Assembly (NCBI RefSeq): GCF_011745625.1
Contig: NW_027191458.1
Coordinates: 930,001 to 994,000 of the forward strand
Origin: Cladosporium halotolerans
Taxonomy: Eukaryota
DNA length: 64,000 nucleotides
Direction: 5' to 3'
Shown: positions 14,272-42,092 of the stretch, in pieces
Numbering within the stretch: position 1 is the first letter of the stretch
Layout: the number at the start of each line of letters is the position of its first letter
Translations under genes and position numbers: made by a program
The notes under the pieces: model-generated
What the model saw: the letters and a program-made list of their open reading frames with translations, nothing else
Databases searched by the model: none
What the model was told of the DNA's origin: nothing

Positions 14272-15646
14272 CTACAACTTCGCATTCCACGCCGCTCTAT
14301 CCGCCGACTCCAGCACCCGCTCCCTCCCATCCCAGAAAAGCGGGCACAGCTGGAACCACTTCTCGCGGCTGCAGACCGAGTGCACGCTGCGCTTGTGCCC
14401 GAGGTCGACGTACTTGCCGATCGTCAGCCCGACCGCGTTCTCGTACGACAGGATCGTGCCGCCCGTCGCCCGCGGCTCGCCCACCACGCTCGCCGTCCGC
14501 ACCTCGTCCAGGAAGCAGTAGTGGATGCAGCTCGAGTACCACGCGTTGACGCGGTGCGAGCCCCGGAACGACGCGTCGCCGACGAGCGAGTGCCGCCCGC
14601 GGTCGTAGTCGTCCGCTCTGTAGTGCGCGCCGTAGTGGTCCTCCTGCGGTTGGGTTAGTGGACTGTGATACGGTGTCTTCGGACCGGCGGCTTACCTTGG
14701 CCCAGTACAGCTCGTAGTACGAGAAGCGGGTGTCGTTGAACCGGCCGAAGAGGCACAGGACGTGCGGGTCGAAGTGCAGCTTGCGGAGGTACTCGCGGTG
14801 CTCGTCGAGCGTGCCGGTCTCGTTCCAGCCCTTGGCGACGCGCGGGTCGTTCTGCCACGTGTTGAACAGCTTCAGGTGCTCCGCGTCCTCCCAGTCGATG
14901 ACTTCGAGCGAGAAGTGCTCGTCGAGCTCCGGGATGTAGCGGCTGTAGCAGATGGATCCAGGATGCGGTTTGGGCTGACGTGTTGGGTGCATGGTGTAGA
15001 TCGGCTGCTCGGGGAATTTCATCGTGAATTGCTGGTGTTCGGGCATCGCTGGATACTGGGAGATGGGCTTCCTGGCGAGCCCTTGGGTGCCGTCGCCTAC
15101 GGCCCAGATCGGTCGGGGGCCTGTTGGCGAAGCGGCTCCTTGCCAGAATGCGCTTCTCAAGATCAACAGGTCGCCGTCGGCGATACCGTCATTCTGCACA
15201 GGCCGCCATGGTTGAGGGTGCTCGATTGCAAGTCCGGTGGCAAGCAGTTCTTGACGGATCACGCTCTTCCCATATCCCTCCAGAGCCAGTCTGAAATACT
15301 CGATCGTCGGATGGGCAAGATAAATAGCATGAACGACGTTCCAGATCTGGGCCAGAGATGGAGTTTCCTGGCTCGGCCATTCAAAAGTCGTCTTTGGGCT
15401 TCTGTATGCTCGGGCCCAAGCGCTGTTGTCATTGTCGGGGGGACACTGTTTGGCGGTTCGTGAAGTCAGGTCTCGCCATGAGAGCGACTCTGAATGCAGT
15501 GGTTCTGGCAAAGATGTTGTGCTGGGTGGCTGATCGTCCAAAGCCAGAACGAACTTGGCGGGCGTGACGTCCGCGTTGCATCGCACTTGATATGAGGTGA
15601 GAAACGGATGCGGCAGTTTCACCGCGGGGTATTTTTGTGGTGACAT
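14272..15646 (-). CDS. sidF: N5-hydroxyornithine acyltransferase (SidF/IucB-like GNAT), about 440 aa, ends in PTS1 AKL
   Basis: Motifs FWQGA, YSRYIP and [14 protein letters not shown]. Intron 14644-14695 joins [37 protein letters not shown]. Confidence 0.92.
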
Positions 15647-16059
15647 GATGGTTTGGCAATTGAATTGTTCTGAATATGAATTGCGATCAATGTAAGTCGT
15701 AGCAAAAGCGCAATTGGACGAAAGTGAAGAACGGGTCTTAAAGATCCGATTAAGAGACACAAGACCTAGCTGGGCCGCGGCCTTGGTCGTAGGAAGTGGA
15801 CCGGCTTGCCTACCATCCTGGGCTGCTCGAATCGCGAACCGAGCATGGCAGGTACGAAAATGGCAGCTAGTTCTCGCCAAACCCAAAATTCGAGACGAGG
15901 GCTACCGTCCGAGATGCCTAGCCTCCTCGTGGCGCCGATACCGCGGCTGGGGTGCCCTAGATGTTCCTACACCTACCAGTGCGGGCATATACGTCTTTGG
16001 CACATTTACGATCGTCTTAAAGAAACTACTCGAATTCGTTTGCGAACCATCCATTCAAT

Positions 16060-21795: not shown

Positions 21796-24700
21796 TTATA
21801 TCTTCAATACAGACTTCGGATCTGCCACCTCCTCAAAGACACCAGCAAACTCTTCCAAGATGGCCTTGACTCTCGCCGAATCTCTCTCGCTCCCAACGAC
21901 ACCCACGTGCATCTGCCCTTCTTTGACAAATGTGACGGCCTTGAAAGGGTGCGCCGCGTCTCCATGAGGGAGCAAAATGTCCACCTTACATGTACCGTCC
22001 GCGAACGGCATAGTGTCAAAGTCTTCAAAGTCCTGGTGATGGACGATAGAGTCGTAGAAAGACGCATTCGGTGCCCAATCAGCGCAATTCGTCGCAATCT
22101 GGCTGAAACCGAGGAAGTCATGCGCTGCCGACTCAGCCATTTGAGCCTGCACGGAGCGCAGCAGATCTATGGACGTCCACTGATCCTGCAGCTGGACACG
22201 GACGGGAATGATGTTGTAGCAAGGTCCGACGACTCCTTCGACGTTGTCCAGGTCAATGTTGCGGCCAGAGCTGACGGCGCCGAATGTCACGTCGGACGTA
22301 CACGTCTGGCGAGCCAGAAGTAACGCCCAAGCCGCGCTCAGCAAATTTGAAGTTGTAATTTCGGTTGGTCGGTCCGAAACGATGACCTGCCTCGACAGGA
22401 ACAGGCCGCGATCGGTCACTTCCTTTGAAGTGCCTCCCAGGCGAGTCAAATGTGAGCCTTGTAGTAGCCTTCTCCAATATGACTGCGCAGCCTCAAGTGC
22501 ATTTTGATGGCGAGTGGCAGCGACGTAAGCTGAGAATGGCACAAATGGCGCGATCTTAGAACCAGCGTATAGATGCTCGAAGTCTTGGAGTAACCTTGGA
22601 AGAGAAACACCATCGTACTGTGCATGCGAGAGACGAACAACCAAGCCAATACGGCCCTCGTTGTCTTCAACCATGAAAGCTTTCAGGAAAGGCTCTTCTA
22701 GCGTGAGTTCGGACTCCGCGTCATCATTGCAAAGCATATTGATGGCTTGCTCCAACGGTTCCTCAGCCTTGTAATGGGACAAAGTCCCCTGGAGCTTCTT
22801 CAGGACCACCTGGAAATAACTCGATTCGTGCTGAACAAACACAGTGCGGAGTATGTCGTGTGACTCAACAAGGCTATCGTACGACTTGATCAGCCGCTCT
22901 CGATCGATATCGTTCTCAAAGCACATCATGGTGTACTGAACAGAGGTCCGCGGCTCACGAATAGTCGCCCGAACATCTAGTGACTGTAAATCCGTTGTCG
23001 GCAAGACGTCCAGGATGGCCCAATTTTGGTCAACGAGTTTCGGCTGAATATGACTGGAAACAAAGTATTCAGCGTTAGAGACAGCCAATGTGGAGTATGG
23101 CTTGTAAGTCTTCGCTTGCGCTTGCGGGACCTTGTTCACTTTCAAAACCCGTGCGGCGTCGCTCAGGCGCATGTTTTGGAAGATGTCTGCCACGGTCAGG
23201 CTGTGTCCCTGTGAGCGAAGGTTGGAAATCAACTTCATCGCCAAGACAGAGTCACCGCCGAGGCGGAAGAAGTTGTCATCAACGTCTATTTGCTCCGCCG
23301 GGATTCTCAGAACTTCCGACCAAGCCGACCGGAGGATATTGGCCGGGCCACTAATGGTGGCGTTCATAGCACTGCTAGACCAAGCTTGTTTGAACCCTTC
23401 ATTCAGCTGCGCAAGATCATCAGAGGAGAGGCTCGCTGCCAACCGGTCTAGACAAGCACGGTCTGGCTGTCCGATCGAGTCTGAAGGGATGCTATCAACC
23501 ACGGCATATGCCAACGGCAACATGAAGGATGGCAGTGAGTCTCGGATGAATTTGTCAAAGCGCTTCGTCGCAGCGGCGAGATTCACGGATATCAATGCGC
23601 AGATCGTCGTTTGACAGCTTCGGGGGCTAGCATCCCCGCAAGTCAGATCCTTTGGCTGGTCCAAGAGCTTTAAGGCGTTGTCCTCGAAGGGCGGTTGTTC
23701 GATGAAAAGGACGGGACCAGTCGACGATGCGAGGGCTTTCTCACCAGCTGCTCGGTGGATGACCGTGGCAATGACGCGGGCACTAGGCGGTAGATGCACG
23801 GAAGCATGAGCCTCAAGTTCCGCGACATCGACGGTGTGGCCTTCGGCGGAAAGGAATTCGGCCTTCCTGCCCACAAAGGTCAAGCTACCATCGGCTTGCA
23901 ACTGCACGAGATCTCCAGTTGACTTGATAGGGGATGATCGGCCTGGACACGAAGGGCTTCCTGCCAACAACCACGGGGGTGACGGTTCAGTCGTTCCATG
24001 AAGGAGAGACCCTTCAAGCCAAAGCTCGCCAACAGTACCAATTGGAGATAGCAGTGCAGTATTTTGTGGATCACAAACCCACGGTACCAACGCGCGAGGG
24101 TACTGTGATCCTTGCTTGGTGGAGTTGCTTGCTCGAATTGTGTCCGTTGAAGTGTCGAGCTCAATCGGCGGGTCCTGATTCCAGAGCCACAGCTGTTCTA
24201 ACTCCGTCGCAGGCAGGCAAGACACCTCACTGACAGGCTTTGAAAGATCTTGCACGATTTGCGAGCATGCGTTTTCAAGTTGTGCGAGTACTCGTTCCAT
24301 TTGCGCAACTGACACCAGGTCTTTGTCGAAACTTGCACAGACTCGGAAGCCATCGCTCCGGATTCCGAATGCCAACATCAATGGGTACGGGTTGAAGTGC
24401 AAAGCCTCGCGCACAGGATCACCCTTCGCAAAGCCAAGCTCATTACCATCATACTCAGGCTCCGGCTGGATGACCAGACCTGTGCCGGCCTCGCAAGCGT
24501 ATTGCGCATCCGTGCTGACCTTGCGAATGTTCTGCATACCCATATGCTGGTACGAAATTCTGGACAGAACGCCTTGCTGCACCGCTTGTAGATACGCGTG
24601 GACGGACATGGTGCGGCGCACTCGGATACGCATCGGTATCGTCGCGATCATGGGACCTACGATGCTTTCGGCACCATGGAGGGGGATGTCTCTGCCTGTG

Positions 24701-27700
24701 AGAGTCTCACCAAAGACGACATCATCACTTCCGGTGTACTGTGAAGCCACAAGGGCCCAGGCGCCACGAATGACGGTGGCTTTGGTGAAAGGGGAGCAAT
24801 CGCTTGCATTGAGTGGAATGATCCTCTCTACCATGCCGTTTGGCGTAGGCATGTAGTCCCGAGTGGGGAGTCTTGGGAATTGAGATCCCGTCGCACCGTT
24901 CAGCTCTTGGCGCCAGAATTCGTTCATCGTTGCGGCATCGACGTTTCCGAGATATCGTACGAAGTCTTTCATGTACGCTAGTGGTTCGCTCTGGTGATCT
25001 TGCAAGTAGTTGCGCAACTCTTGTAGAATGATGGGCTCAGACCAGCCGTCATATAAGACGTGGTGGACTGTCCAAACCATGTATCGCTGGTTTGATTTGC
25101 CGTCTTCGATAACTGCGTAGCGAGCAAGCTCCTGGCCCAATTCTGACTTCTTCTGAAGATCTTGTTTCAGGTATTGTTCCAAATCTGTCGCCAAAGCCCA
25201 TTCGATGCCCTCGCTAAGGACTACCTGCTGTAGACCAGGCTCCTGCAATTGGGCTAAGCGGGTGCGCAAAATCGGGTTCGCTGCCACGACCTTTTCCCAC
25301 GCATTCTTCCAAGCCTGGGTATCAATATGTGAGGGAATCTTTGAGATCCGTTGAGCAATATATGCTTCGTTAGATTTGAGTGAGAAGGTGAAGAGAGACT
25401 CTTGTGTTGGCGTGCAAGGGTAGATGTCTTCGACAGCAGTGGGCTCCAAACCGCAGGCTTGAGCAGCTTCGATGCATGCATCTTCAACAGAGCGACTGAT
25501 CATGGAGAACGCGGGCATTTCCTCGCGATAGGATCCATCGCATAGCCGCACAACGCTGGCCATTCCAGCGAGCGTAGGGTGGTTGAAAGTGTTCATTACC
25601 GTAGCTTCGATGCCAGCGTCGCGGCAAGCGGATACCATCTTCATTGCGGCCAAGGAGTCACCGCCTAGTACGAAGAAATTGTCGCCTGCGCCAACAGCGC
25701 TTTCGTCAAGCTTGAGTATATCACACCAAACCCTCCGCAATCGTGACTCCATCTCGTTCAGCTCCCGAGACTCCGTTGCGGTTGTCGAAGACCCCTGATC
25801 AAGCTGCTGGAGATCAACCGTCGCTCCGAATTGTCTCAGCATCTTACGATCAGTCTTTCCCGAAATCAAGACGGGAAGCTTATTGACAGGAATATATGCG
25901 GTCGGGACCATATACCTAGGGAGGACCTTTGAGATCTCTGTGTTGGCTTCAGCTAAGGCGCTGCGTACGTTCTCGGGGAGCTCCACAGCTACAATGTCAC
26001 CTTGGGTCGATGCATTGACGGATTGAAAAGTGACAAACGCCACCAAGGTTGACTGTCCACCCATGGAGGCAGGCTTGATGACCTCAGCGATGACGGTCGC
26101 GTCTGAAGGAAGACGAGCATTCAGCTGACTCTCAATCTCACTGAGCTCGACGCGCTGACCTCTTAGCTTCACCTGGGTATCCTTTCGTCCAGCGAAAACG
26201 ATTCCTCCAGATCCATCGGGGTCGTACTTGCCGAGATCTCCGGTTTTGTAGAGTCGACCCTTGCGGCCCGTGTGCCCTTTGTGGCCAGCAGCGAGCCACC
26301 TTGGGTCCTCGATGAAAGCAGCAGCTGTCTTTTCTGGATCATTGAGGTAACCTTGCCCAACAATCGGGCCCTCTACTAACAGCTCACCCACAGCGCCGAC
26401 GGGCAGGAGGACTTCGTGGTCATTAGGATCAACAATCCACATTGCGGCACCGTTACCAGTTCCAATGGAGATGTAGGGTCGGCCAGTAGCGGTGTCGCTG
26501 TTGATAGTGCATCCGATCGTGCATTCACAGGGCCCATATCCGATGACGATTCTGGCGCTTTTGCCCCAGAGAGCAACATCACTAGCCGCGGCTGCCTCTC
26601 CGCCGAGTCCCAAAGCTTCGAGAGAATCAATGACGTCTGGCTCTAATATACGAGCAAGCGAAGGTGTAAGGCCAGCATAGTTGATCTGCATCTTCCGGAT
26701 TGCGTTGTTAATGTCATTCATCCTGTCTTCGTCAGATGGAATGCACAGACAGCCACCGTTGCCCAGAGTCAATAGCATGCTATCGATGCTAACATCGAAA
26801 GCATATGAGGCGAAGTCGAGCACTCTCGATCTCTCCGTGTATCCAACTGCCTGGGCTCTAGGTAGTGCACTGCTGGTATACGTTCGGTGCGAAATTTTGA
26901 CACCCTTCGGCGTTCCAGTACTTCCGGATGTGAAGATCAAGTACATGAGCGCAGTTGGTGGGACAGCATCCAGCTCCGGTGACGCCTCTACGTCCGCTGA
27001 CGATTCGAAAGCACCGGCTTCTATTACCAATAGGCTGCCTTTGGGAAGGATGGTTTCAGAAAAGCTGAGCTGTTGGCGAGACGACAGCATTATTCTGGCG
27101 TTGACCTGCTGCGCCATATTCTGAAGCCGAGCCAGGGGAAGAGATGGATCCATCATGACTAGAGTGCCTCCTGCCTTCATCACTGCTAGTACGGCGACAA
27201 TGGTCCATCTTGACTTTTCGAAGCAAAGCGGCACAAAGTCATGCAGCTTGACTCCTTTCTCTAGAAGACGTTTCGCGGTAATTGTGGAATAATTGTCAAC
27301 TTGGCCGTATGTCAATTCTCCATCCCAGGAAGAGATTGCCACTTTAGACGGGAAAGAGCGTGCCTTTTCGGAGATCAGGTCGTGCATGCAAAAGTCGTGT
27401 GTCGGGGGAAGAGTGTGATTCCAGCTCCAAATATCGTCCAGATCTTGGACCGTGGGCTTGATGATTTCCTCGATGGTTGCATGAGGCTTTCTTATGCATG
27501 CTTCAATAGTCTCAACCAGGACGCCCATCAGTCTGGACACCGTCCACTGAGGAATGTTGTCTGTGCTGAATAAAGGTTGGATGCAAAGCTTGCCGGCATC
27601 AAGCCGTAGGCCGTAATGAACAATTCCCTTTCCACGTCCCGTTAGTTAATTGCAATTTTCTCATTGACCAGATGCACACCTACCTCGTCCTTTGCTTGGT

Positions 27701-29170: not shown

Positions 29171-30312
29171 ATGTCCAAGTTCTGGCCCAAAGGTGGTCTC
29201 CCTGGCATCCTTCATCATTATGTATGTATCTACGGTCTAGCTAGCTCAAGCTTACGTTGCTGATGATTTCGTTGTAGGCGGAGAGTCTTGTGACCTTCGA
29301 GTATACCGGAAGCACGGTCCGCAAGCCTCACAGCCTACTGTTTGTCGGAGGCTTGGGCGACGGCATAGCGACGACTTCATACATGTCCTCATTGGTCTAT
29401 GCACTGCAGCCCACACAATGGTCTCTCTTCACCATTAACCTGTCGTCGTCGTATCAAGCGTGGGGTCTTGGCCATCTCGACAGAGACACTACCGAAATCG
29501 CGCAATGCATTGATTATGTCAATGAGTACAAGCAAGCAAAGTTCGGTGGCGGCAAGATTGTCTTGATGGGTCATTCTACTGGCAGTCAGGACGTTCTCCA
29601 CTATCTTTACAGACCTAATCCCCACAACAGCATACCTGCCTTTGACAAGGACCTCCAGCATCGCAAGAGGCCTGTCATTGACGGTGCAATCATGCAAGCT
29701 CCAGTGTCAGACAGAGAAGCGATCCACTGGGTTTTGGAGAAGGGCTTTGCCGGCAGATCTCCAAGTGATTGTCGCGCGGCATATGACAAGCTGATTGCTA
29801 TCGCACAAGAAGCAGCGAGTCAGGGCCGAGATTGCGATACTTTGCTGCCTTTGGAGACTACCTCAGCGCTGTGCTACCCAGCCACTCATCCCATCAGCGC
29901 TCGCAGATTTCTAAGTCTCGTCAGCCCGGAGAGCCCTCAAGCTCCCCAGGAGGATGACCTTTTCAGCTCCGACATCAGTGATGAGGAGTTGGACAAGACC
30001 TTTGGCATGATCCATCAACAAGCACTGCTCAGATACAAACTTCTGGTACTACCTTCAGGGTCAGACCAAGCAGTTCCTGACTGGGTCGACAAGAACGCAG
30101 TTCTTGCGAAGTGGAGGAAAGCTGTCGATCGAAACGGTCTATCACAGATCTGGGATGCGGAGAACAGCGGTCCTGTGCCAGGTGCTTCGCACGCACTGAG
30201 CAATGACGATCAGGAAGGGCCAAGGCAGTATCTCGTCGAAAGGGTTCAGAACTATCTGAATGGGCTCGAGCGGGCGCTATTACCTGCTTCGACAGAAGCA
30301 AACACATCATGA
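29171..30312 (+). CDS. sidJ: DUF1749 alpha/beta hydrolase, SidJ-like siderophore esterase, about 361 aa
   Basis: Exon 1 MSKFWPKGGLPGILHHY, then intron 29222-29277, then LLFVGGLGDG, nucleophile motif MGHSTGSQD, QAPVSDRE and GASHAL. Confidence 0.8.
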
Positions 30313-33007: not shown

Positions 33008-34784
33008 CTAAAGTTTCGCTCTGGGTTGGCTCAGCAACTCCTGTCCAATCTTCTTCATCTCGAATTTCTTGATCTTCCCACTTCCTGTCACCGGAACCTC
33101 TGCAGTCACGCCGTCCTCGCCAAGCCAGAAGACATGCACAGGTGTCTTGTGTCTGCCGAGCTTCTCCCTTGTCCAGGCCTTGATGGCATCTATGCTGGGC
33201 TTCTCAGCATTTGCAGGCCGCTGCAGGAAAGCAGCAACCTTCTCGCCGTATTTCTTGTCGGGCAAGCCAACAACAATGGCACGGTCGACAGCTTCGTGTT
33301 CGACCAGTCTCTCTTCGATCTCGAGTGGGTAGATGTTCTCGCCTCCGCGGATAATGATGTCCTTGAAGCGGCCTGTGATGGTGCAATAGCCGTGGCGGTC
33401 GATGAAAGCTTCATCACCGGTGTGAAGCCACAGCACCCCGTCTGCATCACGTCTCATCGCTTCGTCTGTTTTCGCCTGATTGCGCCAGTACCCTTGCTGC
33501 AACTGGTAGCCGGCGATGCACAGCTCGCCGCGGGATCCTACAGGCAGGATGTTCCCGTTGGCATCCACGACCTTGGCAGAAGCATGAGGCATCAGAGTGC
33601 CGACTGACGTCAGACGACGGTCCATGGTGTCGTCGACGAAGGCATTGAAGCAAGTCGGCGACGCTTCGGTCAAACCGTAGCTGCTGGTGAACTCAGTCAT
33701 ACCAAACTCATTGACGAGCAGCTCCATCAGGTGACGCGGGACTGGGGCGCCTGCAATGATGCCCGTGCGTAGCGCGCTGCAGTCGAAGCCGGTGGGTCGA
33801 GGAAGGCTGAACAGAGTGTCGAACATCGCGGGGACTCCATGAACGGCAGTGCATCTCTCATCTGAGATAGCGCGAAGAACAGCGGGTCCATCGAAGATCT
33901 CCGCGGGATAGACAATCTTTGCCCCATGGGTAATTACGGCGAGAAGCCCGAGTACTAGTCCGAAGCAGTGGAACAGGGGTGGCGGACAGCACAGCACATC
34001 CTTTTGTGTGAGGCTCATGCGGTCGCCAATGAAGCGTGAGTTGTTGAGTAAGTTGTGCTGTGTCAGCATGGCGGCCTTGGGGTGGCCTGTGGATCCGCTG
34101 GTGAACTGCAGGTTGCATGTGTCGAACGGGCTGACAGCCGCTTGAGCTGCAGCTAACGGGTCTGCTGGAAGGCGAGTACCAACATCAATGACTTGACGAT
34201 ACTCTGTCAGGCCATCCAATGATCCAGACAGAAGAACAATCTGCCCAAGTGCAGGCAAATCTTTTGCTGCCCGGCTGAAAGCCTTCAGCATGGATGTGTT
34301 GTCGGTCCGGCCAATTTTTGCGGTTGCAAACAATATTTTGCATTCTGTCTTTGGCATTAGCAATCTATTTAATTCAGGTCTTTCAGAATCCAGGCTTCAT
34401 ACCTGCATACTGCAATGCGTACTGTGCTTCGGCGGAAGTGTACGTGTTGTTCAGGATGACCAAGATCGCGCCGATCCTCATACAGGCAAAGAATACGGAC
34501 GCGTACTCTACACGGTTTCCAGCTAAGATCGCTACACGATCTCCGGATTTGATACCATTGTCGAGCAGATATCGAGCAAGATAGATGCTGTGTTGCTGGA
34601 GATCATTGTATGTCCACCGCGTTCCGTCCCAAGGTGTCACAACGGCCTCATCGTTGCCAAAGTGAAGACACTGGTAATCCAAAAAATCCGCCAATGTCAC
34701 ATCGAGCAAAGGCGGATTCTGTAGTCCATGGAAAACCGAGAGCGCGGTAGAACCGTTGTCCAAGTCGTTTGGGGGCGTCGCCAT
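33008..34784 (-). CDS. sidI: Acyl-CoA ligase, probable mevalonyl-CoA ligase, about 572 aa, ends in PTS1 AKL
   Basis: Motifs LQFTSGSTGHPK, PPLFHCFG, YGLTE, HTGD, GRFKDIIIRGGENIYPLEIE and TGSGKIKK. Intron 34345-34402. Confidence 0.9.
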
Positions 34785-36044: not shown

Positions 36045-37951
36045 CTAGCTCGAGTTCGAATTGTCCGCGCAAGACCAAGACGAAGCACCTCCCTCGCCCG
36101 AGTAGTCATCAATCAATCTGACTACCGCCCGATACGTGCCGCCGATCATGCAAAACGTTCCCGCGACTATGACAAAGAGGCTCCAGCCTACCATGAACCA
36201 GTACTTCCAGTCCCGCTCTTCTTTCCTAGGCGTCCAATTGTCGTACAGCCACATGCAACCCATAGGCTGGAAGCAAATGAGCGTGCCTAGCAAAGCACCG
36301 ATGAGTGAGACCAGACTGCCGAAGTTGGGGACTGCGCTGGCTATGATGTATGCGATGATGACGACCGCTGAAGTACATGATAGCCAAGTGATCCAATGTG
36401 TGACCGTGTTTGCGGTGAGATGCCTGGAGCCTCGCAGGATGCGAACGAAGAGGTGCTTAGCCGGCAGCTGTAAATCGATGCGTTAGTGCTATTAGATCCG
36501 AGGAGTATTCACTGTAAGGCTCACATGGCAAGCGATCATCTCAGTGACCAAAAGGCCCGGCAGGGCGATACCGTAGCAAACCTTTTTCATCAAGGTACCA
36601 GCGGATCCTAGGGCCGGAGAAGCGACGTATGACCCGCAAAAGTAATACACTACCACGCCGACGACGAGATACACGGTGAAGACTGTTGCCTGACAGATGA
36701 GCATCGACCGGGCATAGTGCCTAGGCTCCTTCATTTCGGATGCGATCGGGAAGAAGGCCGGAGTCCCGGAGAAGGCAAAAATGATCGTTGCAACGGCTGA
36801 CATTGCTTGAGCGAAATCAGGAGCTCCGACGATCTTGACATCTCGCGTGAAAGGACCGGTCTGAGGTGCAGAAGCCGGGCGGTCTTGCACACCGACGGCG
36901 ACTGTCACAATAAATACTGTATGGTGATGGTCAGCAAATGCCAGCAGAGAAGATGATGACATAGCTTACAAGAAACTAAAATGCTGACACCGCCTGCAGC
37001 AGCGAGCCAACTGATCTTTGATAGCGTGCGGATCGAAGCAAGGCAGACGGCGGCGATGGCAGCCACGGTCACGAAGATTGCTGTACACACGGCGTGGTCG
37101 GAAACGGCGTTCAGCCCAATAGACAAGCTTAAAATGCTCGATCCAGCAACGAAAGTGTAGTCTATGTCACAAGTATTAAGAGCCTAGCCATGCGTAATTA
37201 CGATGTGCGGAGACTCACATAAGAAGAACGCCATGCCAAAGATCTCGCGTCCAATCTTCCCAAACATTATACCGCCAGTATCATCGAGGCCATACACTTC
37301 AGGATGACGAAGCTTGAAGCAGCCGACAATGTAATCTAAGAATGGAGAATGGTCAGCGACATCATGCATCCCTGCATCAAATCGCAGGCCCACGTTGCCC
37401 AAGACAAGACCAAGTTATGATCACAACAGCACCTTAGGTCCTACGACTAGACAAGGAATGGCCGCGAACGAATATATGCATACTGTAGACAAGTCAGTAC
37501 ATTGTTGTAAATGCAATAGTGATCGTGATGCTTACCCTGACCAAGTTGTGATGACTGCGACCGTGATGAGGATGAGGACTCCTGGGACAACGCCAAGAAT
37601 GTCGAAAGCGCCAGGGATAGAGAGGGCTCCGATGCCAATCTGCGTCTTGATCATGATGACTGCCGTGCCAACCCAACCCACCTACTCTATGTCAGGTACT
37701 GGTTACCTTTGATACAAAGAGGTCTCGCACGTATTACTCACATTTCTGTAATTCGGGCCATCCTCATCTATCTCGCCGAAGACTGGATCTGTTATTGTGT
37801 TCCTCTTTTCCAGCTTGAGGCTTTCGACGTCGCAATCTTCATGATATGGTTCATTCCCAACACGACCAGCGGCGGTGTCTGCTGTCTTGGAACCAACGGT
37901 CCGGAGGGAGAGATCGTCTCGCACGACATCGATGTTGTTGTTGTATGACAT
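36045..37951 (-). CDS. Neutral amino acid permease (Mtr-like, AAAP family), 492 aa, 6 exons
   Basis: Exons 37951-37742, 37681-37537, 37335-37219, 37161-36970, 36916-36525 and 36467-36045 sum to 1479 nt in one frame. Motifs GPNYRNVGW, KTQIGIGALSIP, TWSDYIVG.FKLRHPEVY, FAFSGTPAFF, YVASPALGSAG and WSCADNS. Confidence 0.92.
37336..37536 (-). other. Spliceosomal twin intron (stwintron), [D1,2] type
   Basis: Minus strand reads TCA G | G [GTAAGC..ACTGAC..CTACAG; 37535-37483] TATGC..GCTGAC..TTAG | AT TAC. Removing the inner 53-nt intron creates the donor GTATGC of a 148-nt outer intron. Confidence 0.85.
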
Positions 37952-40163
37952 GTCAATTAGTTATCGTCGTTCCAAAAACGTCCAAGCAAAAGATTCCCCA
38001 TCAAAGAGCAGGTTTGTCATTGCAGAAAACGGCATTGCGGAAAACGTGCTCCTTCTTGTGGACGCCAGCTCGTCTAGAATGCGGCTCTGCGAGACTTCCC
38101 CCGAGGACATCATGCTTATCAGCAGAAGACGCTTTCTTGACTCCACTTAGCAATTGCCCTGGGAAATGTTTGCTCGCAAGGGAATAACGTCGTCGATCAT
38201 GGTGCTAGCTGTCCCGGTTCCGCCCCAGATTTTCTCCACATTTCTCCATGGCAATTCGCGGGGCATGAAAGCATCTTCTTCATATTCTCCCAAAGAGGGA
38301 AAAACTTTAGTTGCTGACATGGCATTGGCGTTGTGGAGCCGGAAACGTCGGATGCATGATGCTGAAGTGGGCCTTGGAAGGTCGCAATTAGAATCCAATC
38401 TTCCCAATTGGCCACTACGAGACGATGCATGCTATCGTCCGCTTGCCTTTCCCACCTATGGTATACTGCTGATTAGTTTTCGTCCAGAAGCCCTCTCATG
38501 TACGGGGCGAATTGCTGCAGTAGCACAGCCCCGACAAGCCTCTCTTGATCGGTGCCACGTTTTGACGCGCGGAAGCCCAAGCTTGACTGGTCTGGTAGTC
38601 ACGAGTGCGCCTTGAGTCAGTCGACCCGTCATCAGGATGGCTGTGCAGGTGTTCTGCCTGATCGAACAGAAGTTTCGGGAACCCCGGCTGTCATGCCTCA
38701 GCCGACGGCGTGTTGCCATTGCCGTTTCCAGATAGACCCTAGCGGAAATTACCTGAATGGGCAGTCGCTTGAGAAAGACTATACTATGTCTTGCATGACC
38801 ATAGGAAGCTCAATGGGTGCGAATTTGCATATCTAGGGTATGATTAGAACATACAATCGGGAACTCAAAGTTTCACGTTCTCTGTGCTGAGATGTGCTCG
38901 ATCGCATGAATGGACCTTCGCATTTCTCGCAAGCCCTTTCTTTGCTATGGGCTGCTGTGCTGAGAGCGATGCCCGAATAGACAGGCCAGGTTGGGCAGTA
39001 CGGTCTCACCAAGCGGTCCATTATGGATTGCGCCTTAGACTCTTTGTACCAAAAGAAAGAGTTCCGTGAAAATTGCAAAAACATACAACAGGCGGGATTC
39101 CCAGATGGTCACCCACTCTAGTACTAGTCGCCCGGTTCAGTGCTTATGTATGGCAGAGCGGACGGGATGCCCAGTTTTCACTGACCTATGGTCGTATGTA
39201 CTGAGCAGTTGCTTCCTGCAAATTATAACCACATTTTTTAGCTGAATAGAATGGAAAGTGATGCCCATACTTCAAGTAGCTCCTCGGCTTCTTGGGCTCA
39301 GAGGCTTCGGGAATGAATACCGTCGTGAACCAGAAAATTGACAGAATCGGTACGGATCAAGCGCCTTCATCACTGAAGTTCCTACTTCATTGCGATGCAG
39401 CGCGATCCGTAAAACTTGGAGGCTGCTCGTGGCCACCAAGATGTGGTCTCGAAGCTCTGATTGGCGTCCGTTGCTCGAGACGAGTGTGCTGCTAACAGGT
39501 ACTGCCGACCACATGCATCTTGGCCGGGCTCCACTGACTCCAAGACGAATAGCATGTTCGTGGAAACCTATGAATGCAGATGAGGGCCCCATAAGGCAAA
39601 GGAGTCTGACGAAATGGAAGTCGTGCGACAGTCATCTTGAGTCGCGAGGCGAGTTGGATGCTGTGGCGCCAAAAGATGAGAGGGCGTTCCGAGCCGGCCT
39701 TCCCGCGTAGCGTGGCTTGGCGGCGCGTGGGCGAGTACAAGAACTTTGCGAAACTTGCCCAACAGATGGATTTTCTTTCTTTCGTGCGGCGACGCGATAA
39801 GAATATTGTTTCCCAAAGTTGCTTGTACATCTACAAATCTGTGGTGTCACAAGTGTCCATCGCGTCACAGAGTAAAAGATATTGCACATCGACCTGCTAG
39901 CCAACTCCGACTTCGCCATCTTCGGTTGGCTCTGTTGGCGCGCTGGCGATCGAACATCACCTTTTTTTCCGATCCCTCTCAATTGTATGACTCGCTATCT
40001 GCCATCTTCTGATGAGGCTTGCTTGTCTGATCCCGCGTAGAAACGCAAATTGGGCGAAAGAAGCTCTCGAACTTTTCGCACGGGGAAGATTCCGTGCGAT
40101 CTGAAAGCCTGAAGTCCAGTTTCATTAGCCCATCTCACACCCACCTTCACACTCTCTGGGACC

Positions 40164-42092
40164 ATGACTGGTCTCAAGATCGTTGCTCTCATATCCGGTG
40201 GGAAAGACTCTCTGTTCTCCCTCCTGCACTGTCTCGCTAACGGGCACGATGTTGTTGCTCTCGCGAATCTCTACCCTGCCGGCTCGTCTGTCGAAGACTC
40301 GGACAGCTTTATGTACCAGACTATTGGCCACGCCGTGATACCGCTGTACGAGAAAGCCCTAGGTCTGCCTCTTTACCGTCAAGCAATCGACGGTGGGGCA
40401 GTAAACCAGAGCAAAAACTACGGACCGACTCCCAATGATGCTGAGAAAGCAGACGAGACAGAGTCTCTCATTCCGCTGCTGCGCAAAGTCATGGCGGCGC
40501 ACCCTGAGGTGGACGCCGTCAGCACCGGAGCTATCTTGTCAGACTATCAACGCACAAGAGTTGAGTCTGTTGCCTTGCGCCTGGGTCTGACGCCGCTATC
40601 CTACCTTTGGCAGTACCCACATCTGCCACCTGGTACGCAGACGTCCCTGCTAGATGACATGACGGATGTTGCGCAGGATGCTCGGATCATCAAAGTCGCC
40701 TCCGGGGGAATGGACGACAGCTTCCTTTGGCAGGACGTCGCCGATTACCGTACGAAGGCTCGACTGGTGAAGGCTTCGCAAAGGTTCGGCACTGGTGGAG
40801 ATGGCGCTGCCCTTGGGGAAGGCGGCGAGTATGAGACTCTTGCTGTAGCCGGACCAGCGCCTCTGTGGAAGGCCAGAATTGTTGTAGACGAGCAGGAGCG
40901 GACTGTTCTTCCGGGTGAAGCCGGCAGTGCATCTATCAGGATTGCGAGGGCGGATATTGCACCTTTGGAGTCCTCGGAGACTAAACAAGTTCGCAAGCCG
41001 CAACTACTAGACGATCAATTCGCTCAATTGCTCGGAACCCTGCGAAAAGACTCAACAGAAGATTTGTCGTCCAGCTCATCGGACGCACTGCATACTGGCA
41101 AAGAATCAACGGATGAGAGGATTATCACTCTTGTTAAAGGCCTGACCGCGGCAGGCCTGACCGCCTCAGAGCAGACAGAAAACATTATGCGCGACCTTGA
41201 GACCAGACTCCTAGACGCCGGCCATGGCTTCTCAAACGTTGCCTACACATCCATCATTCTCCGTAACATGGCGGACTTTGCAGCTGTCAACACGGCTTAC
41301 GGCAAATACTTCCAATACCCAAACCCACCTGCTCGAATCACACTGGCTTGTGCTAGCGTGCTCCCGGACGACGCTCTCGTTACCATATCTGCCACAAGCG
41401 TGAAGAAAATCGCAGCGAACGACCGGAAAGGTCTGCACGTGCAAAGCCGCTCATACTGGGCGCCTGCAAACATCGGTCCTTACTCGCAAGCCATTTCCGT
41501 ACCTGCCACTCAGGCAAACGGTACTGAGGCTAGCCTCACATACGTCGCAGGTCAGATACCCTTGGAGCCAGCGTCCATGGAGTTGCACAGCTCTCACGGC
41601 TTCGACACATCGGAGACGTTTCTCGACCAGGCTGTCCTGGCACTCCAGCATCTTTACCGTATTGGTGCTGCTGTTGGCGTTGGAAGATGGACGAACGTGA
41701 TAGCCTTCATCACTGCTCCCTCTCACGAGGCCGCGGTCTCCAGAGCAGAAGTCGCACGACGGGTGTGGCAGACAAAGCACACGCCACCGAGTCTGAAGAG
41801 CGGAGACGAGGACGATGACAGTGAGGACGAGGATGAGAGCTTCGACGTCTGGGATCAGCAACGAGGTGCTGGACGAGCCGCTTGGCAGAGTTACACTACG
41901 GGCGCCAGTGATGAGAGCAGTAACGAGACCTCGCAAAGTGTGCCACCAGTGTATGTCGTCCAGGTTGACAGTCTGCCTCGCAATGCCAGCATAGAATGGG
42001 CGGCTTATGGATCGACCGGGAAGGGCGATGAGACGATCGATATACCGCATCTGGCACACTTGCTGGAAATGTTCCAGGGTTGCACGCGGTAG
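40164..42092 (+). CDS. DPH6: Diphthine--ammonia ligase with C-terminal RidA/YjgF-like domains
   Basis: Motifs VALISGGKDS, DSFMYQTIG, GAILSDYQRTRVESV, GEGGEYET, PNPPARI, LHVQSRSYWAPANIGPYSQA and LPRNASIEW. Confidence 0.95.
   Translation: MTGLKIVALISGGKDSLFSLLHCLANGHDVVALANLYPAGSSVEDSDSFMYQTIGHAVIPLYEKALGLPLYRQAIDGGAVNQSKNYGPTPNDAEKADETESLIPLLRKVMAAHPEVDAVSTGAILSDYQRTRVESVALRLGLTPLSYLWQYPHLPPGTQTSLLDDMTDVAQDARIIKVASGGMDDSFLWQDVADYRTKARLVKASQRFGTGGDGAALGEGGEYETLAVAGPAPLWKARIVVDEQERTVLPGEAGSASIRIARADIAPLESSETKQVRKPQLLDDQFAQLLGTLRKDSTEDLSSSSSDALHTGKESTDERIITLVKGLTAAGLTASEQTENIMRDLETRLLDAGHGFSNVAYTSIILRNMADFAAVNTAYGKYFQYPNPPARITLACASVLPDDALVTISATSVKKIAANDRKGLHVQSRSYWAPANIGPYSQAISVPATQANGTEASLTYVAGQIPLEPASMELHSSHGFDTSETFLDQAVLALQHLYRIGAAVGVGRWTNVIAFITAPSHEAAVSRAEVARRVWQTKHTPPSLKSGDEDDDSEDEDESFDVWDQQRGAGRAAWQSYTTGASDESSNETSQSVPPVYVVQVDSLPRNASIEWAAYGSTGKGDETIDIPHLAHLLEMFQGCTR

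Follow-up and report, generated by a model that had tools for sequence, protein, structure and literature searches.

How an amino-acid transporter gene can be expressed when its reading frame is interrupted by a sequence that begins with GG rather than GT is the question raised by positions 37951–36045 (minus strand) of the window, i.e. the whole 64-kb stretch of Cladosporium DNA that was analysed. All positions given below are those of the window, and the gene, being on the minus strand, is read from higher to lower numbers. It was modelled with six exons (37951–37742, 37681–37537, 37335–37219, 37161–36970, 36916–36525 and 36467–36045, the last including the stop codon) that, once joined, form an open 1,479-nt coding sequence specifying 492 amino acids. 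Exons 2, 5 and 6 matched the Pfam family Aa_trans (PF01490) with scores of 30.4, 45.3 and 42.3 bits, respectively (gathering cut-off 25.6). Four of the intervening sequences are ordinary introns, each supported by the spliced model and by a joint in RNA contigs: intron 1 (37682–37741; 60 nt, GTGAGT..TAG, its joint being reported with an equivalent cut at +3), intron 3 (37162–37218; 57 nt), intron 4 (36917–36969; 53 nt, donor GTAAGC) and intron 5 (36468–36524; 57 nt). The remaining one, second in order along the gene (37336–37536), is a phase-1 element of 201 nt with GG..AG ends that interrupts codon 119 (Asp) between its first and second bases. The initial annotation of this DNA had proposed that the family motif T-W-S-D-Y is interrupted here by 201 nt starting with GG, and the sequence and the homologue alignment agree on this: the spliced model was gapless across the motif when compared to 87 of 89 homologues (430–500 amino acids long, taken from the best 120 matches). 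Of the other two, P0065 does not cover the site, while P0105 has an 18-amino-acid insertion there.

The signals of two introns, one placed inside the donor of the other, can be recognised within the 201 nt; such an arrangement was defined by Fekete, Flipphi and co-workers as a [D1,2] stwintron (PMC9024468; PMC5587772). The first nucleotide of the element, G37536, which is the third G of TCA-GGG, would be the first base of the outer intron's split donor, and it stands directly before the full canonical donor GTAAGC (5′-G/GUNNGN), one of the 24 donors in the published [D1,2] model (PMC9024468). This donor (37535–37530) opens an inner intron of 53 nt (37483–37535) that continues with the branch element ACTGAC (37498–37493), a spacer of 7 nt and the acceptor CAG (37485–37483), in agreement with the DYTRAY branch element located 4–20 nt before HAG, and with the length of at least 42 nt, that characterise the class. 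The stretch CAG/TATGC fits an acceptor followed by the U-RWGY remainder of a donor. The remaining 147 nt (37336–37482) form, together with G37536, an outer intron of 148 nt with the donor G/TATGC (TATGC at 37482–37478) and with its own branch element, GCTGAC (37357–37352), and acceptor at the 3′-end, TAG (37338–37336), separated by 13 nt. Excising the 53-nt inner intron brings G37536 next to TATGC, which creates the new donor GTATGC; among the four AGs able to end the inner intron, only that at 37483 yields a canonical new donor. Exon 2 ends in ACT TGG TCA G (37537) and exon 3 begins with AT TAC ATT GTC GGC (from 37335), so that joining 37537 to 37335 renders S-D-Y and the open 492-amino-acid frame. 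The motifs and lengths initially claimed (201, 53 and 148 nt; GTAAGC, ACTGAC, CAG, TATGC, GCTGAC and TAG), as well as the open frame obtained by nested removal, were all confirmed. The inner intron resembles the four ordinary introns of the gene (53–60 nt) in size and signals; the outer intron, at 148 nt, is far longer than these, which counts against the stwintron reading.

Removing a single canonical intron gives no equivalent product. Retention of the element leads to a stop at codon 120, and removal of the inner 53 nt alone to a stop at codon 135. Excision of the 200 nt from 37535 to 37336 in one step, from GTAAGC to the distal acceptor, shifts the frame and leads to a stop at codon 131; these last two outcomes had been anticipated in the initial annotation. 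When every GT or GC donor in 37600–37400 was combined with every downstream AG, nine single introns that keep the frame were obtained, all with poor donors (e.g. GCGTTG or GTCCCA) and each deleting 7–32 residues of a conserved helix. Thus, no single GT/GC-AG intron in this enumeration keeps both the frame and the conserved T-W-S-D-Y. The alternative splicing route known for stwintrons that can be read as either [D1,2] or [A2,3] needs a G directly after the distal acceptor (PMC5587772, legend to Figure 1); since the base at that position (37335) is an A, this route is closed, as had been claimed.

The motif itself might be found by chance. The published [D1,2] regular expression (PMC9024468, section 2.1), with its distance variants A, B and C (section 3.1), gave 0, 0 and 1 matches, respectively, on both strands of the 64-kb window, the sole match being 37536–37336; the outer donor-to-branch distance is 120 nt, which fits model C (111–200 nt). 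Random windows generated with a first-order Markov model from the window's dinucleotide transitions gave ∼0.05 model-C matches per 64 kb; a match to some [D1,2] model occurred in 6 of 60 such windows. The authors of the models report a true-positive rate of ∼30% (PMC9024468). Since random windows also match, the motif set alone is only mildly unusual and constitutes weak evidence; the weight of the case is carried by the exact frame-restoring position of the element and by RNA contigs.

The 2-kb stretch containing the gene is present, in whole or in part, in 20 public runs, four of which (X3, X15, X9 and X17) were aligned to the window. All four are assembled contigs (Logan), in which rare forms such as a splicing intermediate are not visible. 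X3 shares its sample with the run that contains 100% of the words of the stretch; its 1,291-nt contig showed 0 differences to the window exons over 1,261 nt, with joints at 36467/36525, 36916/36970, 37161/37219, 37335/37537 and 37678/37739 (equivalent to 37681/37742). In X15, which belongs to another study and bears another organism label, the contig is 1,529 nt long, shows 19 differences and has each of these five joints as well. The joint from 37335 to 37537, which skips 201 nt and reads CT..CC on the plus strand, was found in X3 and X15, in one contig each. It has a 2-base ambiguity; the possible placements are GG..AG, GG..TA and AG..TT, none of them canonical. Mature mRNA lacking exactly the whole element, alongside the four ordinary introns, is therefore present in two studies, and the mature junction 37537/37335, which the initial annotation had suggested looking for, was found. 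The X3 contig departs from the window at 36290, inside exon 6, and continues with 30 unlike letters; its depth is 0 over 36201–36267, and there is no GT donor at 36290. This departure is probably a contig chimera, although an alternative 3′-end is also possible.

The DNA has three Gs, the mRNA lacks exactly 201 nt, and no single canonical intron explains the removal. All the sequence features that define a [D1,2] stwintron were present and the mature junction was seen in RNA contigs, which supports the initial interpretation. It is highly probable that the 201 nt constitute a [D1,2] spliceosomal twin intron removed by two consecutive reactions, and we infer that these proceed in the order inner, then outer. 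In the first reaction, a U2 spliceosome would remove the 53-nt inner intron (37535–37483), joining G37536 to TATGC and generating the donor GTATGC of the 148-nt outer intron. A second U2 reaction would then remove the outer intron by means of GCTGAC and the TAG ending at 37336, so that exon 2 (ending TGG TCA G) would be joined to exon 3 (starting AT TAC) to yield an intact 492-amino-acid Aa_trans transporter. Both reactions would take place by intron definition, the outer donor existing only after the first step. Experiments have established a two-step mechanism of this kind for many [D1,2] stwintrons (PMC9024468; PMC5639578; PMC5587772). As the initial annotation stated, stwintrons of this kind are known in Pezizomycotina, where hundreds with the same architecture have been validated, their intermediates being demonstrated by reads or by RT-PCR (PMC9024468; PMC12403724).

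The main alternative is that the 201 nt are excised in one step as a non-canonical GG-AG intron, the nested signals being incidental. The mature junction present in X3 and X15 is equally compatible with such an excision. However, to our knowledge GG is not accepted as a donor at a U2 5′ splice site, and the element contains an inner intron that is complete, canonical and typical in size, positioned exactly where its removal creates GTATGC, a motif set expected by chance, as indicated above, ∼0.05 times per 64 kb. Furthermore, when distal one-step splicing occurs in Xylariales, the cut is made at GT and the frame is shifted (PMC9024468; PMC12403724). One-step GG-AG excision is thus considered improbable.

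A second alternative is an assembly or sequencing error, the true genomic sequence being TCA-GG-TAAGC, in which case the remaining 200 nt would be a single ordinary GT-AG intron in phase 1. From the mRNA junction alone, GG and GGG are indistinguishable. A run of three Gs, however, is not an error-prone homopolymer, and the contigs from X9 and X17, which come from other studies, span the site. The X9 contig (799 nt, 37146–37944) showed 15 substitutions, and that of X17 (1,162 nt, aligned over 37080–38000) 29; both crossed the element with 0 gaps, none of the listed differences being an insertion or a deletion. The differences in study and the 15 and 29 substitutions indicate that these are not the same data as the window. 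As the X9 and X17 contigs show no splice joints, they were taken to be DNA or unspliced sequence and are uninformative on splicing; nevertheless, since they cross the element without an indel, the third G is real in at least two other strains. The finding of only two Gs after TCA, named at the outset as what would overturn the stwintron interpretation, was therefore not borne out, and the error explanation is largely refuted and very unlikely. The contigs also revealed that the length of the (AAC)n run at 37933–37944, corresponding to Asn4–Asn6 of the transporter, varies between strains, 16–18 extra TGT-repeat letters being present at this place in the X15 and X9 contigs. Finally, that the spliced contigs derive from another gene copy (a paralogue, an allele or a processed copy), the window copy being a frameshifted pseudogene, is scarcely credible: Aa_trans genes are indeed multi-copy in these fungi (66 related loci), but the X3 contig is identical to the window exons, the five joints lie at the window's own intron borders, and the closest other loci have only 75–83% protein identity in exon 5.

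To place the stwintron among its relatives, metagenome contigs were scanned with exon 5, which rendered 66 loci (240,403 nt), and the site of the element was scored in each by tblastn with the spliced model. No intron was found at the site in 32 of the 66 (e.g. TGG TCT GAT TAC). In 18, an intervening sequence starts directly after the Trp codon (TGG/GT), while in the other 16 the site was uncovered or ambiguous; three of the latter (L006, L029 and L032) have, by eye, the same intron as the 18. Fifteen of the 18 gave cleanly parsed introns of 55–67 nt, ending AG/TCN directly before the Ser codon. The intron of the relatives therefore lies between the Trp and Ser codons, in phase 0 and 4 nt upstream of the phase-1 element of the window. 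This departs from the initial annotation, which had expected a plain phase-1 intron in orthologues. The stwintron was present in none of the 53 related loci that cover the site, no [D1,2] model matched anywhere in the 66 loci (240,403 nt), and the element was found only in the window and in strains ∼98–99% identical to it; deeper relatives therefore lend it no comparative support. The Logan-derived protein P0105 has its insertion exactly at the W-S-G/Y site. The insertion has the look of a short intron, in frame, that was kept in the predicted protein, which would be consistent with a conserved intron position in related loci.

Two of the loci, L002 and L004, are syntenic orthologues of the transporter gene: the downstream AMP-binding gene follows in both, with 90% and 89% amino-acid identity, respectively, and their intergenic DNA aligns with that of the window at 80–81%. 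The breaks between their HSPs coincide with the other intron positions of the window gene; apart from the four ordinary introns chained in L001, L002 and L004, the shared intron positions rest on such breaks. The phase-0 position is also shared by the more distant paralogues L051–L061 and is therefore the ancestral one. In the window gene the Trp and Ser codons are contiguous, so the phase-0 intron is gone. By this comparison, the element is lineage-specific, the relatives carrying their ordinary 55–67-nt phase-0 intron instead.

Two routes to this state are possible: either the old intron changed its position, or it disappeared and the stwintron was gained beside it. When the stwintron was compared to the introns of the relatives by the Smith-Waterman algorithm, the best match was that of L001, whose score was reached by 19 of 300 shuffles; for the other eight introns, 9–286 of 300 shuffles reached the score, the 9/300 case (L051) not being collinear. 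Since this similarity is not above that of shuffles, a shift and a loss followed by a gain are indistinguishable. The proposed model in which stwintrons are born by ligation of RNA into a double-strand break calls for ‘an additional G to be inserted in the break’ (PMC12403724), and the layout of the present site, an exon ending in TCAG followed by a G and a complete GT..AG unit, agrees with this demand. It is conceivable, though rather unlikely, that a single recent coupled event took place here, in which the phase-0 intron was lost and a complete GT..AG intron RNA (or DNA) plus a stray G was inserted 4 nt downstream. The insertion would have occurred during break repair or reverse splicing. 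If so, the locus would have captured, in nature, the ‘extra G’ step on which that model depends, and would exemplify an intron shift (4 nt, between syntenic orthologues) that proceeds by way of a twin intron. The window gene and its syntenic orthologues, with their intron 4 nt away, make a test bed for distinguishing a shift from a loss plus a gain, and the same pair can be used to address the demand of the break-repair model for an ‘additional G’.

Several features that might bear on the origin of the element were sought. An imperfect direct repeat of 17 nt (15/17 identical) has one copy in the outer intron (37408–37424) and the other at the end of exon 2 (37555–37539), the two being 131 nt apart; it is marginal, its score being reached by 6 of 500 shuffles, and may reflect templated repair or chance. 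In MAFFT alignments, the exon-2 ends of the orthologues were placed on 37424–37408. This placement was treated as an artefact, because the similarity between the outer intron and the exon ends of the orthologues was no better than that of shuffles (66–311 of 500), and a ‘pseudo-exon’ in the outer intron was accordingly rejected. The last seven bases of exon 2, TGGTCAG (37537–37543), are perfectly complementary to CTGACCA (37350–37356), which overlaps the outer branch element and is part of a 16-nt inverted repeat with 75% identity reaching into the exon. Neither the 64-kb window nor the 66 related loci contained a second copy of the element, the best other matches having E values of at least 0.42, and an introner-like element was discarded on this basis. 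The fold of the element was no more stable than that of shuffles (z = −0.37; 64 of 200 shuffles folded at least as well). No near-terminal 10-nt stem was detected in it, its only inverted repeat being the 16-nt one formed with exon bases; a stable hairpin or an NTIRE-like stem was therefore dismissed by both the repeat search and the fold test.

The closest known counterparts are the 81 uniquely occurring [D1,2] stwintrons described in Hypoxylon sp. CO27-5 (Fekete et al. 2022, PMC9024468). The layout is the same (G plus donor, inner branch element and acceptor, HAG/U-RWGY, outer branch element and acceptor), and the element, at 201 nt, is within their size range (114–313 nt) and falls in their model C. 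As in Hypoxylon, the stwintron is a single copy with no similar sisters, in this case within the window and the 66 loci, and distal one-step splicing would shift the frame. The differences concern the host, Cladosporium (Dothideomycetes) rather than a member of the Xylariales, and the gene family, which is PF01490 here while the transporters in the Hypoxylon tables belong to pfam13520 and pfam00209. In addition, most of the uniquely occurring Hypoxylon stwintrons are reported at family-conserved positions (PMC9024468), whereas at the present site the element was seen in 0 of 53 loci and a canonical intron lies 4 nt away. For published [D1,2] stwintrons the splicing intermediate has been demonstrated, while the two-step order proposed here is deduced from the arrangement of the signals.

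A second group is that of the propagating ‘sister’ [D1,2] stwintrons of Hypoxylaceae and Xylariaceae, which are reported to carry near-terminal inverted repeats (NTIRE-10) (PMC12403724; PMC8469720). The present stwintron shares with them the [D1,2] type, a position not shared by relatives, and the extra G before a complete GT..AG unit. Unlike them, it has no copy in the 64-kb window or the 240 kb of related loci, an average fold and no near-terminal stem. The alternatively spliced [D1,2]/[A2,3] stwintron of a DHA1 antiporter gene (Fekete et al. 2017, PMC5587772) likewise adjoins a discordant canonical intron within a conserved peptide motif; in that case, however, the discordance is 1 nt rather than 4 nt. 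In addition, for the stwintron analysed here the [A2,3] route is closed, and losing either of its constituent introns would not regenerate the phase-0 position of the orthologues. Introner-like elements of Dothideomycetes (Collemare et al. 2015, PMC4457414) are similar in being lineage-specific, in occupying a new position and in residing in a Capnodiales-related fungus, but they are described as multi-copy elements with stable folds, whereas the present element has an average fold and no copies in the window or the related loci.

The initial annotation had suggested that this instance may be undescribed, and none was found in the open stwintron literature or in two sets of supplementary tables. 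Stwintrons of pfam01490 genes or of Cladosporium are absent from the supplementary tables of PMC9024468 and PMC12403724, which deal with Xylariales and list pfam13520 and pfam00209. The main texts of the open stwintron papers do not contain ‘amino acid transporter’ or ‘amino acid permease’, and in the available text of these papers the sole co-mention of Cladosporium is in a general review. The element is thus a genuine [D1,2] stwintron, of a well-known kind but apparently not described before. Stwintrons illustrate that fungal spliceosomes define introns singly, and offer one of the few handles on the origin of new introns; the one described here, supported by transcripts, belongs to a lineage (Cladosporium-like Dothideomycetes) and a gene family (Aa_trans) that are absent from the stwintron papers and tables searched. 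It also has a practical consequence, as gene callers that demand GT-AG introns cannot model the transporter gene correctly; its 201-nt GG..AG gap is best recorded in annotations as a pair of nested introns. Among the best 120 matches in the protein collection searched, there was no window-identical protein of at least 229 amino acids for the transporter gene, which is a weak hint that its full-length model is absent from this collection and that gene callers may mis-annotate the gene, as the initial annotation had deemed likely.

By the look of the window, the transporter gene lies beside a siderophore-type biosynthetic cluster (14297–34396). This region includes an NRPS open reading frame at 21796–27645 (minus strand), with AMP-binding, Condensation, PP-binding and SidD N-terminal domains, and open reading frames for a GNAT acetyltransferase (14297–15901), a DUF1749 protein (29278–30312) and an AMP-binding, acyl-CoA ligase-like protein (33008–34396), the last of these being the gene downstream of the transporter gene. 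A gene specifying a Dph6-like diphthine-ammonia ligase is found at 40113–42092; a protein identical to that predicted from the window (P0121) is present in the same protein collection, and its nearest named relatives are those of Cladosporium fusiforme (74%), Cladosporium sp. NU13 (71%) and C. inversicolor (71%).
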